NCBI GenBank assembly: GCA_041737385.1
Contig: JBGSRU010000002.1
Location: 269,437-333,436 of the forward strand
Length of the DNA stretch: 64,000 nt
Source: Candidatus Saccharimonadales bacterium
GTDB lineage: Bacteria > Patescibacteriota > Saccharimonadia > Saccharimonadales > SZUA-47
Reading direction: 5' to 3'
The notes beneath the pieces are model-generated. The model searched no databases, had not been told where the DNA came from, and saw nothing but the letters and a program-made list of their open reading frames with translations. Within the stretch, counting starts at the first letter, position 1. Every line of letters begins with the position of its first letter. The position numbers and the translations under genes are program-made. This document shows, one piece after another, positions 1 to 48,861 of this stretch.

Positions 1-1101
1 AAGAATTTTGATGTCACACTCATAACCCCGCGAAGTCGGTTTGAATACCACGGTGCTATGTATCGAAGCGCCACTGGCAAGTCTCCTCTTGAAGTAGTGA
101 TACCCTTATCAGAGATATTTGCAGATTCTCTAAACGTCCGTGTTGAGCTCGATTCAGTCGCCGAATTACGACCACAAACTCGTGAGGTCGAAGGAGAATC
201 TGGTCGTGCCTACCCATACGACTACTTAGTTATGGCAGTTGGTTATGTTGTTAATTATTTCAATATTCCAGGTATGGCCCTATATGCTGATTCAATGTAC
301 AGCATTTCTGAAGCGATTAAATTACGGCATCGTTTAGTTGGTGCATTTCGGAATACAAAACCGCATCATCCAATACATATATCAATTATTGGTGCTGGCC
401 CAACTGGTGTTGAAATTGCCTCTGACATTCAGAATTTTTCGCAAGTAGTCGCCGGCAAGCATGGCATTCGAGACCTTGATGTGCAAGTGAGGCTAATCGA
501 AGCATCAACAAAAGTGTTGCCGATGCTGAGCGAAAAGAGCTCAAGCGCTGCACTAAAAAGACTCCAAGAGTTGGAAGTAGAAGTTTTGTTAAATGCAAAA
601 GTAACTAAGTGCTCAGAGCGGACAGTACTAGTTAACGGTGAGAAATTGGCCAGTGATATAACAATATGGACAGCAGGCAACAAAGCAAATCCGTTATTCA
701 GTTATTACCCAGATTTGTTTACGGTAAACGAACGCGGAAGAGTACAAGTCAGTGAATATTTCAATGCAAACAGCCCGAATATATTTGTCATCGGGGATGC
801 AGCCGATACTCCGTACAGTGGCATGGCGCAAACTGCAATTCATAATGCAATTGCACTCGCGACCAACCTAAAGCGCAGCGTAGCTAACCAACATCAACAA
901 GCGTACGTGCCTAAAAAGCCCGAGTACGTCGTACCTGTCGGCGGAGAGTGGGCGCTATTAGAGACGCAACATGGAGTTATCTCGGGAAAAGAAGGATGGA
1001 AAGCTAGGCGAGAAGCAGATAAATGGGTGTTACAGAACTTTTTGGTGTATGATTTAGCTAACAAACATTGGCAACAAGGCGACAGAATTGCAAATTTTTA
1101 G
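1..1101 (+). CDS. Type II NADH dehydrogenase-like FAD/NAD(P)-binding oxidoreductase, 5' end cut by the window edge
   Basis: Frame 1 is open from base 1 (KNFDVTLITPRSRFEYHGA precedes the listed Met at 58). It carries the dinucleotide-binding motif IIGAGPTGVE and a C-terminal FVIGDAA motif typical of NDH-2/pyridine nucleotide-disulfide oxidoreductases. Confidence 0.7.
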   Translation, partial: KNFDVTLITPRSRFEYHGAMYRSATGKSPLEVVIPLSEIFADSLNVRVELDSVAELRPQTREVEGESGRAYPYDYLVMAVGYVVNYFNIPGMALYADSMYSISEAIKLRHRLVGAFRNTKPHHPIHISIIGAGPTGVEIASDIQNFSQVVAGKHGIRDLDVQVRLIEASTKVLPMLSEKSSSAALKRLQELEVEVLLNAKVTKCSERTVLVNGEKLASDITIWTAGNKANPLFSYYPDLFTVNERGRVQVSEYFNANSPNIFVIGDAADTPYSGMAQTAIHNAIALATNLKRSVANQHQQAYVPKKPEYVVPVGGEWALLETQHGVISGKEGWKARREADKWVLQNFLVYDLANKHWQQGDRIANF

Positions 1102-33317: not shown

Positions 33318-33392
33318 TGGCTGGGTCGGCAGGGATCGAACCTGCGAATGCCAGTACCAAAAACTGGTGCCTTACCACTTGGCGACGACCCA
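33318..33392 (-). tRNA. tRNA-Gln (anticodon UUG), CCA encoded
   Basis: The minus-strand sequence reads TGGGTCG-TC-GCC-AAGTGGTAA-GGC-A-CCAGT-TTTTGGT-ACTGG-CATTC-GCAGG-TTCGATC-CCTGC-CGACCCA-G-CCA. It folds as a 7-bp acceptor stem, a 5-bp anticodon stem with loop positions 34-36 = TTG, and a canonical T arm. Total length is 75 nt. Confidence 0.85.
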
Positions 33393-43614: not shown

Positions 43615-44127
43615 TTAAAACAGCATCTTTTCAAGTGCTTTGATATCTCGTTGACGCCATTTATCTTGAGATATTAGGCCTTTATTATTAGCAATAATTG
43701 CTTCTTTTGATAGTAACGGGAGTGTAAAGCCTTCAAACTCGACATTCTCAACTTCAGGGAACCCATCTTTATAATACTTACTAAATACACTAACTTTTGG
43801 GTTATAAACAAGTAGTTCATCCATAGTGCACATATCTAAAACTTGTCCTTCAATATTTAACTCTAAATTATAGTTATTGTAATTCTCATCAACATAGTTA
43901 ATTAAATCTTGCGAAATATGTGGCTTTACATCCTTCAAAAAATTCCTAAACTCTGGGCTGTCTTTTGACGTATCAATGTCTATATCGATATCAGTCAGCA
44001 GCCTATCTACTCCGTATACATAGCATGCAAAACCACCTGTTATAACCCAGTCAAACTTATATATATTTAGTAAGGGGATTATGAAGTTTAAGGCTTTTCG
44101 GGCTTTTTGATTTTCTTTATGTGTCAT
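43615..44127 (-). CDS. Nucleotidyltransferase-fold protein (Lnu/ANT-like)
   Basis: WVITGGFACYVYGVDRLLTDIDIDID matches the GG...G..R...D.D pattern of lincosamide/aminoglycoside nucleotidyltransferase-like enzymes. The start is probably ATG 44127 (MTHKENQ), because the listed 44214 start runs into repeat copy B. Confidence 0.55.
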   Translation of the reverse strand: MTHKENQKARKALNFIIPLLNIYKFDWVITGGFACYVYGVDRLLTDIDIDIDTSKDSPEFRNFLKDVKPHISQDLINYVDENYNNYNLELNIEGQVLDMCTMDELLVYNPKVSVFSKYYKDGFPEVENVEFEGFTLPLLSKEAIIANNKGLISQDKWRQRDIKALEKMLF

Positions 44128-44184
44128 GAGAGGAGTATAGCAAGAATTGGAGTGAAGAACCGGCTGTCTTTTTAGAACCTGTTT

Positions 44185-44338
44185 GTGGGGTACCTCGTCC
44201 CATACTCTCAGCATTGATTCGGAAAATTATTGGACACATCACTCAGTTTTCACGCTTTATGCTGGTTTAAAGCAAACTCAGGCATCAATTATCAGACATC
44301 AGACATTACTCATACCAGTTTTATGCTGGTTTGGCTGC
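44185..44338. repeat. Structured intergenic repeat, copy B (H1 plus the right-hand 86-bp module; H2 and H3 absent)
   Basis: GTGGGGTACCTCGTCCCAT at 44185-44203. Segment 44253-44338 is nearly identical to 42222-42308 and includes both ATGCTGGTTT motifs (44259, 44323). Confidence 0.8.
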
Positions 44339-46191: not shown

Positions 46192-47664
46192 TTATTTATT
46201 CCTATTATTTAATTTTATTGTTTGTGTAACACCAATAGCTTTGAAGAAAAATTCATCATGTGATGAAATCAGCATAGCGCCTTTATATTTTTCTAAAGCC
46301 TGTTCGATGTTTTCTCTTGTTGGTATGTCTAAGTGATTTGTCGGTTCATCTAAGATCAACAAGTCATTTTTAGCAAGTAGTAACTTTGCGAAACTTAGCT
46401 TAGACTGTTGGCCACGAGATAATTCACTTGGGTATTTTTTCAAATCTGTTCCACCCATGCCGAGTGCGCGCGCCTCACGGTAAATGTCTGTTATGTCCGC
46501 ATCGGAGTCAAGCAAGTTATCTAACGCAGTTTTAGAGGTATCAATTCCGTCGACATCTTGTGACAGATATCCAATAGAAATATTTTCTCCGACAGTAACT
46601 TTACCACTTGTTGGACTAATTTCACCTAATGCTATCTTTAGTAGAGTAGATTTACCGCTACCGTTCTTGCCATTTATCCTAAATCGATCATTGCCCCGCA
46701 CTTCAAAAGACAGGTTGCTAAAAAGTTTTTTACTGAACTCCATCGAAACATCTTCCACGCTCAATACAAGTTTGTGCAAATGTGCTCCGCCATCAATAGC
46801 TATTTTATAGCTTCTTTTGTTCTCTGGTTTATCGAGCTCACTAATTTGCTTCAAACGCGATTCCATAGAACGTACTTGCTGTCCATACTGCCTAGTTACA
46901 CGGTTCTTGAAATAGTCCCGTTGAGCCTTGTCATTATCCGTGCGCTTGATGTGTTTATGAGTGTGCAGTTCTAATTCACGACGCTGTCTAAGAGCACTCT
47001 CTACCCGTCTACGTTCTTCGATGCTTGCTTCGTACGCTTCTTCTGCGTGGAGACTTTCAAGGTCCTTTTGTTGCCTATAGTTATCATAGTTTCCGCTATA
47101 GACTTTCAGGATTCCTGATTTAAGATCTAATATCTTAGATGCAGATTTATTAATGAAGTTACGATCATGGCTTATTATCACTACTGAGCCCTTAAAATGT
47201 TTTACATATTTTTCTAACCACACTAGGCCTTCCGCATCAAGGTTATTGGTAGGCTCATCTAGTAGTAGTACGTTAGGTTTAGGCTGTTTTGCTAGAACTA
47301 TAGCTATAGCAAGACGAGTTTTCTCACCACCGCTTAAAAGCTTCGTGTTAAAATCCATTGGTTTTTTTAAGCCAACGTCTTGCAACGCTAAATCAATTCG
47401 CCATTGTTCAGTATCGTCATCAAAGCACTGATTAATAGCCGTTCCAAAATCCTCTTGCTGTGGTACATAACCAGCAGCTGCACTCGGAACCTCGACTTTT
47501 CCATTATCGGGCTTGATTTTACTTAGCAGAATCTTTAACAGCGTCGTTTTGCCAGCTCCATTTTCACCAATAAGAGCAATAACCTCGTTGTGAAGCGTGA
47601 GGTTTATATCTTTAAGGACTTCTTTAGCCCCAAAGGATTTACTAATATTTATGAGTTTATACAT
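46192..47664 (-). CDS. ABC-F family ATPase (two ABC cassettes, no TM domain), ARE/translation-factor type
   Basis: Walker A GENGAGKTT and GKNGSGKST, signatures LSGGEKTR and LSRGQQSK, and Walker B LLLDEPTNNLD and LILDEPTNHLD. A charged interdomain linker is present. The start is ATG 47664 with a GGAGA RBS. Confidence 0.85.
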   Translation of the reverse strand: MYKLINISKSFGAKEVLKDINLTLHNEVIALIGENGAGKTTLLKILLSKIKPDNGKVEVPSAAAGYVPQQEDFGTAINQCFDDDTEQWRIDLALQDVGLKKPMDFNTKLLSGGEKTRLAIAIVLAKQPKPNVLLLDEPTNNLDAEGLVWLEKYVKHFKGSVVIISHDRNFINKSASKILDLKSGILKVYSGNYDNYRQQKDLESLHAEEAYEASIEERRRVESALRQRRELELHTHKHIKRTDNDKAQRDYFKNRVTRQYGQQVRSMESRLKQISELDKPENKRSYKIAIDGGAHLHKLVLSVEDVSMEFSKKLFSNLSFEVRGNDRFRINGKNGSGKSTLLKIALGEISPTSGKVTVGENISIGYLSQDVDGIDTSKTALDNLLDSDADITDIYREARALGMGGTDLKKYPSELSRGQQSKLSFAKLLLAKNDLLILDEPTNHLDIPTRENIEQALEKYKGAMLISSHDEFFFKAIGVTQTIKLNNRNK

Positions 47665-47676
47665 ATTTTCTCCAAA

Positions 47677-47723
47677 CAAAAAACCGAGCACGTTGTTGAC
47701 TAGTAGTCACACGAATGCTCGGT
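47677..47723 (-). terminator. Leader terminator (attenuator) immediately upstream of the ABC-F RBS
   Basis: The minus strand reads ACCGAGCA-N25-TGCTCGGT followed by TTTTTT, and ends 7 nt before the GGAGA of the ABC-F gene. Confidence 0.65.
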
Positions 47724-47785
47724 ACTTTTAGATAGAGTTAACTGATATAACAATCAATAGCAAAGTCTGCACGAATTCGTGTGAT

Positions 47786-47809
47786 CTAGCTGTTGATTGT
47801 GTCTATCAT
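47786..47809 (-). CDS. 7-codon upstream ORF (MIDTINS) in the ABC-F leader
   Basis: ATGATAGACACAATCAACAGCTAG on the minus strand, preceded by AAGGAG. The stop is followed directly by ATCACACGAAT, which is complementary to ATTCGTGTGA inside the terminator loop. Confidence 0.5.
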   Translation of the reverse strand: MIDTINS

Positions 47810-47836
47810 TTGTATAAAAACTCCTTATTTGTATAG

Positions 47837-47865
47837 ATATTACCATAAACAAGAAGGTTGGTCAA
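47837..47865 (-). promoter_or_regulatory. Sigma70-like promoter of the ABC-F leader
   Basis: The minus strand reads TTGACC, a 17-nt spacer, then TAATAT. Confidence 0.55.
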
Positions 47866-47922
47866 CAATATTGCTTGTGTTTTTCAATCTGCCAGCCCTC
47901 AAGAGAAACTCAGCTGTTGATA

Positions 47923-48861
47923 TCAACTAATCTGCTCGTTAAACTTATCCACCAATTCTGTTACGTGTGACCATTCCTTCATGAGATTCATGGTATCTAG
48001 TAAGATATATGCTTTTATCCTATCTTTAAGCAAGGGATGTTTGAACATTTCAGGGTAGTACTTTTCATACCAACTGCGGAGGTTTTTGTAGTCTTCAGGC
48101 ATAGCAAACTTTTCGTTTTCTTCAGTAGCGTACTTCTTTGGGTCGTCCATGAGCTTCGTTACTACAAATAGAGGATAGTCTACAGCACAGACATCAACAC
48201 TCTCTAGATCAATGAGAGCTTTAAGCTTAAAATTATCATCAACAATAATATTGTCGAAATGTACGTCCCAGAAAACAGGGCACATTTTATCCGTCTTGAG
48301 GGCGTCTAGATACTTACTAAACGTATTCTTTAGCGCAGAATCCTGAGCCTGAGCGATTATATTCTTATCAAGTAGTTCTCTGGCCATATCCTCAAGTCTT
48401 GTTTGCAGGTAAATGTGCCAGGGCTGGTCTTGCTCGCTAGGCAAAAACTCGACGCTAATCTTGTTAATTTTTCTTAAAATAGTTGATAGGTCTTTGACGA
48501 TGGCTTCTCTTTGAGCGTCGGTTGCAAGATGCCATACATGCCCTAAAACAGGGCCGTCTACGAACGCCATGAATATGTAATGTCTTCTATCGTCCGTCTC
48601 TCCTTCGGCAACAAAAGATGGTCTTGCAAAATCTATATCCGAGCTAAGTATCGCACGTTCAGTTTGGTACCGCTTATTACCATCTTCAGACTTATAGATT
48701 TTAAGTACCAGGTCATCATTAATTTTATAGACCTCGTTCATAAAGCCTATTGTTATTCGTGAATGAGTAAAATACTCTATGTCATTTAGTTCGCATAGTT
48801 GCTTGATCTGGTCTGTGCTGAACGTTGATTCTGGATTCATTACGCTAAATATCTTCCACAC
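47923..48861 (-). CDS. Aminoglycoside/macrolide phosphotransferase-like kinase (APH/ChoK fold)
   Basis: Catalytic-loop-like FWDVHFDNIIV (D-x4-N) followed by ALIDLES (the DFG equivalent), in a protein of about 300 aa. Confidence 0.65.
   Translation of the reverse strand: MWKIFSVMNPESTFSTDQIKQLCELNDIEYFTHSRITIGFMNEVYKINDDLVLKIYKSEDGNKRYQTERAILSSDIDFARPSFVAEGETDDRRHYIFMAFVDGPVLGHVWHLATDAQREAIVKDLSTILRKINKISVEFLPSEQDQPWHIYLQTRLEDMARELLDKNIIAQAQDSALKNTFSKYLDALKTDKMCPVFWDVHFDNIIVDDNFKLKALIDLESVDVCAVDYPLFVVTKLMDDPKKYATEENEKFAMPEDYKNLRSWYEKYYPEMFKHPLLKDRIKAYILLDTMNLMKEWSHVTELVDKFNEQIS

Follow-up and report, generated by a model that had tools for sequence, protein, structure and literature searches.

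The leader of an ABC-F ATPase gene in a Candidatus Saccharimonadales bacterium probably acts as a translation-coupled transcription attenuator with a translational back-up, controlling a protein that resembles the antibiotic resistance (ARE) class of ABC-F factors; a probability of about 0.7 is assigned to this reading as a whole. The gene lies on the minus strand of a 64,000-nucleotide stretch of DNA (positions 269,437 to 333,436 of contig JBGSRU010000002.1, assembly GCA_041737385.1), which is referred to here as the window and whose own numbering is used throughout. That the leader is a translation-coupled attenuator can be held with good confidence; that antibiotics are its natural inducer is favoured to a lesser degree. 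An initial annotation, made from the letters of the window, had proposed an upstream open reading frame (uORF), alternative pairings and an intrinsic terminator in front of the ABC-F gene. This proposal gained support in silico, where the elements themselves, their conservation, the covariation of two helices, the co-evolution of the antiterminator and a structural switch that depends on the ribosome footprint could all be demonstrated.

Conservation and covariation of the leader

The leader consists of a promoter, a Shine-Dalgarno (SD) motif, a seven-codon uORF, a long hairpin (hairpin A, the candidate anti-antiterminator) and a putative intrinsic terminator followed by the SD of the ABC-F gene (Table 1). 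The promoter (TTGACC and TAATAT, separated by 17 nt on the minus strand), the AAGGAG ribosome binding site with the uORF encoding MIDTINS, and the terminator whose T6 tract abuts the ABC-F ribosome binding site (47723-47678) had all been named in the initial annotation and are present where it placed them; a TG preceding TAATAT adds an extended -10 element to the promoter. By itself, the promoter match is not significant (seven matches found against 11 expected from shuffled sequence). The perfect palindrome CACGAATTCGTG of the same annotation also exists (47781-47770), but in the minimum free energy (MFE) fold it forms only the apex of a far longer hairpin (47808-47743). Neither this hairpin, with the uORF as its 5' arm, nor an anti-SD element 5' of the terminator had been noticed at that stage. 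According to the folds, the small hairpin formed by the palindrome would lock the antiterminator strand inside hairpin A.

Orthologous loci were gathered by a metagenome scan seeded with a family-specific linker motif and by exact look-ups of nine relatives, both close and divergent. The same leader order precedes the orthologous ABC-F gene in 41 loci, which comprise 27 distinct leader sequences and whose proteins are 45-62% identical to that of the window. Within 150-180 nt before the ABC-F start, loci with usable upstream DNA share, in this order, a TTGAC-N17-TATGnTAATAT promoter (in most loci), an SD and a short uORF, the conserved 3' arm AGCTTTGCTATTGAT, and a terminator (AACCGAGC...GCTCGGTTTTTT) located 16-31 nt before the ATG and followed by TTGGAG. 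Only L104 and L105 depart from this order. A covariance model built from 15 leaders (R1) matches directly upstream of the ABC-F gene in the 41 loci (E-values between 1e-31 and 3e-4, the least significant ones coming from leaders truncated at contig ends), and it finds a single copy in the window. It has no match in 56 more distant metagenomic ABC-F loci (L106-L161) or in 80 ABC-F loci of other phyla, the latter being approx. 30%-identical ABC-Fs from a genome scan in which the full-length alignment picked generic Walker-B peptides. In Rfam 15, no family matches the leader at the gathering score or at E<=10, and the noise matches are to snoRNA models only.

The leader of the window folds far better than expected by chance (-48.2 kcal/mol vs. 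-31.7 ± 3.6 kcal/mol for shuffled sequences, z = -4.6; none of 200 shuffles was as good). In relatives, the single-sequence fold of each leader is the same hairpin A, with an apical hairpin of different sequence at the equivalent place. When hairpin A and the lower terminator stem (33 pairs together) are projected onto a MAFFT alignment of 15 sequences, 92.7% of the cells are paired, compared with 32-44% when the partner strand is slid; eight pairs (21 cells) have changed on both sides, and none of 500 shuffles reaches the covariation score. The corresponding values for an alignment of 28 distinct sequences, which is biased towards the structure because it was fitted to the covariance model, are 93.4% and 33-46%, with 16 of the 33 pairs (67 cells) changed on both sides and again 0 of 500 shuffles. 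Hairpin A alone (22 pairs) is paired in 90-91% of the cells (90.5% in the MAFFT alignment), with six compensatory pairs in the MAFFT alignment and 10 in the 28-sequence alignment, and the lower terminator stem is paired in 97-98%, with two and six compensatory pairs, respectively. This stem is also recovered by RNAalifold; applied to a mixed alignment of 19 sequences, in which the clade encoding MIRIARAK is misaligned, that program recovers the terminator alone, and it was therefore replaced by structures projected from single-sequence folds together with the covariance model. Thus, the leader is conserved and its helices covary, and the absence of conservation, which the initial annotation had named as grounds for abandoning its proposal, was not found.

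An SD-like motif (AGGA, GGAG or GGAA), a start codon and a stop after 6-8 codons occur in all 27 distinct ABC-F leaders. These encode 13 different peptides: MIDTINS, MIDLINS, MIDQINS, MTDQINS, MIDSINR, MIDIINR, MIVTINR, MIVIINR, MKITINR, MIDRVNL, the GTG-initiated IDIINS, and MIRIARAK and MIRIKL, which represent two clades of largely different nucleotide sequence. Codon 4 varies freely, and the 3' arm of the hairpin changes along with it. Changes at I5 and N6 are almost all synonymous third-position substitutions (the exception is I5V in MIDRVNL), and in one relative (L101) the altered I5 and N6 codons are compensated in the 3' arm (ATTAAT with ATTAAT). That the length stays nearly constant across unrelated sequence classes speaks for translation of the uORF. 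The SD-like motif ends 10-13 nt before the uORF start in these leaders, and the distance between the SD core and the AUG is long throughout (about 9-12 nt, vs. 5 nt for the ABC-F gene itself); this conserved spacing may be functional, e.g., by causing weak or slow initiation.

The terminator has a predicted energy of -19.1 kcal/mol and lies 17 nt before the ABC-F ATG; transcription is predicted to end there when the stem forms. A simple terminator scan missed it because the stem is interrupted. In 14 of 17 full-length MFE folds, a pyrimidine-rich anti-SD immediately 5' of the terminator base-pairs with the ABC-F SD.

Antiterminator pairing and the structural switch

The initial annotation had noted that the segment following the uORF stop is complementary to a sequence inside the terminator loop. 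The complementarity itself holds (ATCACACGAAT, 47785-47775, with ATTCGTGTGA, 47716-47707), but the target is not a loop; it consists of the 5' strand of the upper stem and the top of the lower stem. The pairing is also longer than the initial 10 bp, since UAG can pair with CUA, UCG with CGA, and more. Duplex prediction finds the post-stop segment complementary to the 5' side of the terminator in each clade despite differing sequences: AAAUGUCACGC with GCGUGACAUUU in L084, GUCGUC-GCACAGC with GUUGUGU-GACGAU in L082, CACGCAACACAGG with CUUGUGUUG-UUGUG in L102, and UAGUCGC-ACAAG with CUUG-CGUGACUA in L086. As the z-scores of this pairing against single-sequence shuffles are modest (-0.5 to -3.4), strands from the same leader were compared with strands exchanged between clades. 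Among 11 representative leaders, the duplex energy averages -16.2 kcal/mol for own pairs and -10.6 kcal/mol for cross-clade pairs, and the own-pair mean was reached by 0 of 20,000 permutations (p<5e-5), which indicates that the antiterminator pairing co-evolves.

Because constrained folding of the full-length leader is unable to test a kinetic switch, the transcripts of 12 leaders were folded as cut before the 3' arm of the terminator, with the ribosome footprint as a constraint. With no ribosome, hairpin A forms and 11 of the 12 leaders contain no antiterminator pairs. Placing the AUG in the P site yields 12-17 antiterminator pairs in 11 leaders, and the same number of pairs forms in nine leaders with codon 3 in the P site. 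A ribosome on the last sense codon covers the post-stop segment; six of the leaders then form no antiterminator pairs, and the remaining six form 6-10. For the window, the extended antiterminator takes up the upper stem together with 6 of the 9 nt on the 5' strand of the lower stem.

Proposed mechanism

In the repressed state, transcription would start approx. 7 nt after the extended -10 box, and the uORF region would pair with 47761-47743 to form hairpin A, whose tip would lock the post-stop segment. The terminator (47729-47674) could then form, and RNA polymerase would stop 10-20 nt before the ABC-F start; in RNA that escapes by readthrough, the ABC-F SD would still be held by the upstream CUCUA. 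A ribosome that is not stalled would reach the stop codon, where its footprint would mask the post-stop segment, and after its release hairpin A would re-form, leaving the switch off. Conversely, a ribosome arrested at about codons 1-4 would melt the 5' arm of the hairpin while the post-stop segment stayed free. Segment 47788-47772 might then immediately capture the newly transcribed 5' half of the terminator (47716-47704, and further into the CGA of the lower stem), such that the terminator hairpin would be unable to nucleate and polymerase would enter the ABC-F gene. The likeliest trigger would be an antibiotic that arrests the ribosome at or just after initiation, which points to compounds that bind the peptidyl-transferase centre (lincosamides, pleuromutilins and streptogramin A). 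We infer both the role of the footprint and this choice of drug class from the geometry of the leader, and induction by such a drug is likewise a prediction.

The ABC-F protein and its partner genes

The ABC-F protein contains two ABC_tran domains separated by a linker of approx. 100 aa and has no membrane domain, as judged from Pfam. It matches the NCBIfam model NF000355 ('ribosomal protection-like ABC-F family protein') over residues 2-479 with 421 bits (cutoff 380) and falls below the cutoffs of the housekeeping models (EttA 278/599 and 274/807; Uup 276/900). Its best sequence match in the PDB is VmlR2/ExpZ (8buu; 253 bits, full length), with EttA and YbiT close behind. The protein aligns full length, linker included, with VmlR2 and MsrE, and with EttA in two separate stretches; because of this pattern and the protein length, it probably lacks both the EttA-type arm and the Uup-type C-terminal domain. 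The nearest relatives are 61-62% identical, and those that are named belong to Candidatus Saccharibacteria (one is labelled Nomurabacteria). A neighbour-joining (NJ) tree was calculated with E. coli EttA, Uup, YbiT and YheS, with Vga(A), Msr(A), Msr(E), Lsa(E), OptrA and PoxtA, and with two Firmicute 'ribosomal protection-like' proteins as references. In this tree, the Saccharibacteria-type proteins form a clade of their own with 100% support, apart from the four E. coli proteins. The grouping with EttA/Uup-type factors that would have spoken against the initial annotation is therefore seen neither in the NCBIfam scores nor in the tree. Comparison with plasmids by tblastn was also tried as a means of discriminating between ARE and EttA types; it gave no separation, all matches being 28-34% identical. 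The ARE assignment thus depends mainly on the NF000355 score and on gene context, and ribosome protection by this protein is a plausible prediction from its sequence.

Regarding gene context, in most related loci a kinase gene of the same orientation overlaps with or directly follows the ABC-F stop codon, forming an apparent operon. The partner is an AAA_33 kinase in L162-L173, L186-L187, L083 and L103 and an APH-fold kinase in L086-L097, L101 and L189-L193; the window (47923-48861) and L098 differ in that an APH-fold kinase gene immediately precedes the leader. Pairing of an ABC-F with a modifying enzyme is characteristic of resistance modules (msr(E)-mph(E), msr(A)-mph(C), lsa(E)-lnu(B)). 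The other flanking genes differ among loci and include recombinases, restriction genes, Mrr and BrxA, which suggests an accessory module. The P-loop partner kinases match only AAA_33, Zeta_toxin and KTI12, and the closest named relative of the APH-type partners is APH(4)-Ia (105-157 bits vs. a cutoff of 725). These kinases did not point to a particular drug: the AAA_33 kinases match no chloramphenicol-phosphotransferase model and the APH kinases show weak similarity to APH(4)-Ia and no match to Mph.

The leader class also occurs in front of other genes than ABC-F. L099 carries a second, divergent copy (379-532, minus strand; R1 52.8 bits, E approx. 5e-8), arranged back-to-back with the ABC-F leader and followed by a stand-alone homologue of the AAA_33 P-loop kinase. 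This copy contains a seven-codon uORF (MATYTNN), a AGCTTTGCTATTG arm, a terminator, and GGAG with an ATG, and its post-stop GUUGUCGC is complementary to GCGACAA in its own terminator. L104 and L105 (45% identity), on the other hand, are the sole members of the family without R1; their leader is of another kind and has a terminator of its own plus a longer open reading frame (ORF). In L104 (1594-1774) and L105, the terminator AAAAGCCGAGAGC...CTCGGCTTTTTT stands before the ABC-F gene together with an upstream ORF of approx. 32 codons that has no clear SD, and this leader may be an independent attenuator.

Alternative explanations

Several points weigh against an antibiotic-responsive attenuator of an ARE-like gene. 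In the full-length leader, the terminator stays the thermodynamic optimum at any ribosome position, a behaviour expected of a kinetic device, and the model therefore depends on co-transcriptional kinetics; in addition, the antiterminator core spares the bottom 7 bp of the terminator (ACCGAGC/GCUCGGU), which could formally still form as a pseudoknot. Selection on the uORF peptide is not cleanly separable from selection on the RNA helix. The SD-to-AUG spacing of the uORF is long (approx. 11 nt in the window), and a uORF of seven codons, compared with three or four in initiation-stall sensors of the PLSA type (pleuromutilins, lincosamides and streptogramin A) (PMC10201436), may leave room for a context-specific arrest during elongation. 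As for the protein, it lies far below the cutoff of every named ARE subfamily scored (Vga 301/725, Msr 291/680, Lsa 233/750 and CplR 290/780, as well as Sal, OptrA and the producer type), it is at most 34% identical to any plasmid-encoded ABC-F, EttA or ARE alike, and its clade is sister to Vga/Msr/Lsa with a bootstrap of only 37%. If this is the sole ABC-F of the genome, a housekeeping role is possible.

This last point leads to the most serious competitor, which is improbable without being negligible. It accepts the switch and takes its signal to be general translational stress or stalling (limitation of energy or tRNA, or difficult peptides), with a housekeeping ABC-F that would clear stalled ribosomes, including those on its own uORF, and so achieve homeostatic autoregulation. 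The geometry of the leader would indeed respond to any early stall rather than to a particular drug, the family is a deep, separate branch of ABC-Fs across Saccharibacteria that lies outside the named ARE subfamilies, and there is no second ABC-F within the 64-kb window, while small genomes may carry only one. Nonetheless, the score of the protein exceeds the 'ribosomal protection-like' cutoff and stays under those of the EttA, Uup and YbiT types. Its varying neighbourhood, with recombinases, restriction genes and BrxA, suits an accessory module better than a core factor, and its coupling to APH or AAA_33 kinases resembles that in resistance operons. Keeping a gene off by default with a strong terminator would also be unusual for an essential factor.

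A switch that works independently of uORF translation, whether as a riboswitch or by binding a protein or tRNA, would make the short ORF a by-product of the conserved helix. Codons 4-7 do lie inside that helix, such that their conservation could be purely structural, and the spacing between the SD and the AUG exceeds the optimum. However, a start codon followed by a stop after 6-8 codons recurs at this position in all leader classes (MIDxINS/R, MIRIARAK, MIRIKL, and MATYTNN of the second L099 leader), even though these have hardly any sequence in common beyond AUGAUA, or none, and the SD-like motif is retained in the 27 ABC-F leaders. No conserved multi-helix ligand pocket is seen, the variable tip being precisely the part that co-evolves with the terminator, and no Rfam family matches. 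Moreover, an antiterminator strand that starts at the stop codon makes sense only through a ribosome footprint, and this explanation appears very unlikely. Less credible still is that no switch exists and that the hairpin and U-tract are a terminator or insulator of the upstream APH gene, accompanied by promoter- and ORF-like features that arose by chance. That gene does share the strand, and promoter-like matches are no commoner than in shuffled sequence; yet the terminator is placed after the promoter and uORF, directly against the ABC-F SD, and the leader accompanies the ABC-F gene whatever is upstream (divergent, helix-turn-helix or hypothetical genes). The promoter, uORF and alternative pairings are conserved and covary, and the recurrence of the leader upstream of orthologues contradicts this explanation.

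Relation to known attenuators

The initial annotation had likened the layout to the ribosome-stalling attenuators of ARE-type ABC-F genes, and this comparison is borne out at the level of logic, which matches that of the VmlR and CplR leaders. The leader is best described as an analogue, not a homologue, of the known ABC-F attenuators (VmlR, CplR, MsrD, Vga(A) and LmrC), since no sequence relationship is detectable. For VmlR (PMC9226507) and CplR (PMC10201436), the same attenuator logic has been demonstrated experimentally. The leader of Bacillus subtilis vmlR contains uORF(MIN), an anti-antiterminator (SL-1), an antiterminator, a terminator (SL-3) and an SD-sequestering hairpin (SL-4), and lincomycin and retapamulin arrest ribosomes at or just after initiation on uORF(MIN) (PMC9226507). 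The candidate leader resembles it in having a short uORF with its own SD within a 5' anti-antiterminator hairpin, an antiterminator that would form upon a stall in the uORF, a terminator just before the ABC-F start and a sequestered main SD. In both cases, the uORF begins with Met-Ile, and the ABC-F of the window is ribosomal-protection-like by score. The two differ in that R1 matches only Saccharibacteria-type loci, the uORF has seven codons here and three in vmlR, and the host is a bacterium of the Candidate Phyla Radiation rather than a Firmicute, with the system known here in silico only. In the window, the stop codon marks the beginning of the antiterminator strand, which occupies the tip of the anti-antiterminator, and no separate pause hairpin (SL-2) was identified.

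The leader of Clostridioides difficile cplR, with uORF(MRI) (PMC10201436), likewise has a repressed conformer of two hairpins with the uORF in the 5' hairpin, a terminator with a poly-U tract beside the main SD, an anti-SD element, and an antiterminator in the induced state. Its uORF has three codons as opposed to seven, and the cplR terminator stem itself sequesters the SD, whereas here a separate anti-SD would pair across the base of the terminator.

In macrolide leaders, induction depends on a specific arrest peptide, and the ribosome generally stalls late in the ORF. Streptococcal msrD and staphylococcal msr(A) are preceded by macrolide-inducible leaders, MsrDL and MsrAL (PMC10314930), which share with the present leader a peptide of 6-8 residues and a terminator that a stalled ribosome relieves. 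In the leader of the window, in contrast, a late stall would cover the antiterminator strand and, according to the folds of cut transcripts, should not induce; the seven-codon class also lacks the +x+ motif, and the MIRIARAK clade has R-A-K. The coupling of an ABC-F to an antibiotic kinase in msr(E)-mph(E) and msr(A)-mph(C) has its counterpart in the APH or AAA_33 kinases, although these weakly resemble APH(4)-Ia and not Mph. Similarly, the protein shares a minimal architecture of 490 aa and a long inter-domain linker with Vga/Msr/Lsa (ARE1-3), which are its nearest labelled neighbours in the NJ tree, but it is only approx. 30% identical to them, scores below each NCBIfam cutoff and belongs to its own fully supported clade. 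In the available literature on Saccharibacteria or other members of the Candidate Phyla Radiation with ABC-Fs, no description of such a leader or of ABC-F regulation was found.

Features of the locus

The positions of the leader elements and flanking genes are collected in Table 1.

Table 1. Elements of the ABC-F leader and adjacent genes (window coordinates; MFE, minimum free energy; SD, Shine-Dalgarno)
Feature	Position	Strand	Sequence or remarks
APH-fold kinase gene	47923..48861	-	Pfam PF01636, 50.5 bits; ends 57 nt upstream of the leader -35 box
Leader gap	between 47923 and 47664	-	258 nt between the APH-fold kinase stop codon (47923) and the ABC-F ATG (47664)
-35 hexamer	47865-47860	-	TTGACC, direct read; TTGAC equally spaced from the uORF in relatives
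Extended -10 box	47845-47837	-	TGgTAATAT (TG 47845-47844, TAATAT 47842-47837); TATGnTAATAT recurs in relatives
uORF SD	47826-47821	-	AAGGAG, 11 nt before the uORF AUG
uORF	47809-47786	-	ATG ATA GAC ACA ATC AAC AGC TAG (MIDTINS); 7 codons + stop (TAG 47788-47786)
Hairpin A (predicted anti-antiterminator)	47808-47743	-	MFE fold; 5' arm = uORF (47808-47789), 3' arm = GCUAUUGAUUGUUAUAUCA (47761-47743)
Palindrome	47781-47770	-	CACGAATTCGTG; apical 4-bp hairpin at the tip of hairpin A
Antiterminator 5' strand (predicted)	47788-47775	-	UAG-A-UCACACGAAU: stop codon + next 11 nt; continues 3' into UCG (47774-47772)
Antiterminator 3' strand (predicted)	47716-47704	-	AUUCGUGUGA-CUA: top two lower-stem pairs + 5' strand of the upper stem
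Anti-SD (predicted)	47737-47733	-	CUCUA; pairs with the ABC-F SD (UGGAG) across the terminator base; MFE fold
Intrinsic terminator (predicted)	47729-47674	-	A-tract (47729-47726), lower stem, upper stem, U-tract
Terminator lower stem	47723-47715 with 47691-47683	-	ACCGAGCAU/GUGCUCGGU, 9 bp
Terminator 8-nt stem core	47723-47716 with 47690-47683	-	ACCGAGCA with TGCTCGGT; T6 at 47683-47678
Terminator upper stem		-	UGACU/AGUCA, 5 bp; separated from the lower stem by an internal loop
U-tract	47683-47674	-	TTTTTTGTTT
ABC-F SD	47673-47670	-	GGAG, 5 nt before the ATG (47664); kept as TTGGAG or TAGGAG in relatives
ABC-F ATPase gene	46192..47664	-	490 aa; Pfam PF00005 twice + PF12848 (ABC_tran_Xtn linker)

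Some further observations concern the surrounding DNA. A 12-mer, GGGCTGGCAGAT, lies at 47887-47898 (minus strand), approx. 20-30 nt upstream of the -35 box; among all loci fetched, an exact match occurs only in the distant relative L084 (1689-1700), and the chance expectation for the window is 0.12 matches with one mismatch. A tRNA gene (33321-33392, minus strand) is the sole match at Rfam gathering level in the 64-kb window. An ORF of 199 aa (43615-44214, minus strand), 2 kb downstream of the ABC-F gene, carries a nucleotidyltransferase-like GG...D-I-D-I-D motif and has a weak Pfam match to DUF6036 (nucleotidyltransferase; 17 bits, below the cutoff); the ORFs around it have no family match. 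Outside the window, the loci L106-L161, which have no R1 leader, encode ABC-F proteins of 540-565 aa in high-GC genes and form their own clade; they were caught by one of two linker-derived patterns (D[NG]DK[YA]QRD or [FY]F[RK]NRVT). A Streptomyces sp. locus from the genome scan (L026) groups with them in the tree.

Significance

The leader described here is a new, phylum-level leader family for a known mechanism, and its sequence family is absent from Rfam. It extends the principle of a stalled ribosome, a uORF and a terminator, so far known from Firmicutes and Actinobacteria, to the Candidate Phyla Radiation, whose members have minimal genomes and almost no characterised gene regulation. A more far-reaching and decidedly speculative idea is that the leader is a lineage-wide ribosome-stall regulon element of Saccharibacteria and that M-I-D-x-I-N-S/R is a specific arrest peptide adapted to a natural product that actinobacterial hosts may produce. 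If this were true, one and the same switch would govern the ABC-F-kinase operons as well as an isolated kinase gene in at least one genome, and the module would be a dedicated defence of an epibiont against the chemistry of its host.

Within a broader context, the covarying RNA family could enter RNA databases and be used to annotate inducible resistance-like modules in metagenomes. It also connects an uncharacterised clade of ABC-Fs with two uncharacterised kinase families. Finally, drugs that arrest ribosomes on the MIDxINS uORF would provide a testable handle on the chemical stress that is sensed by Saccharibacteria.

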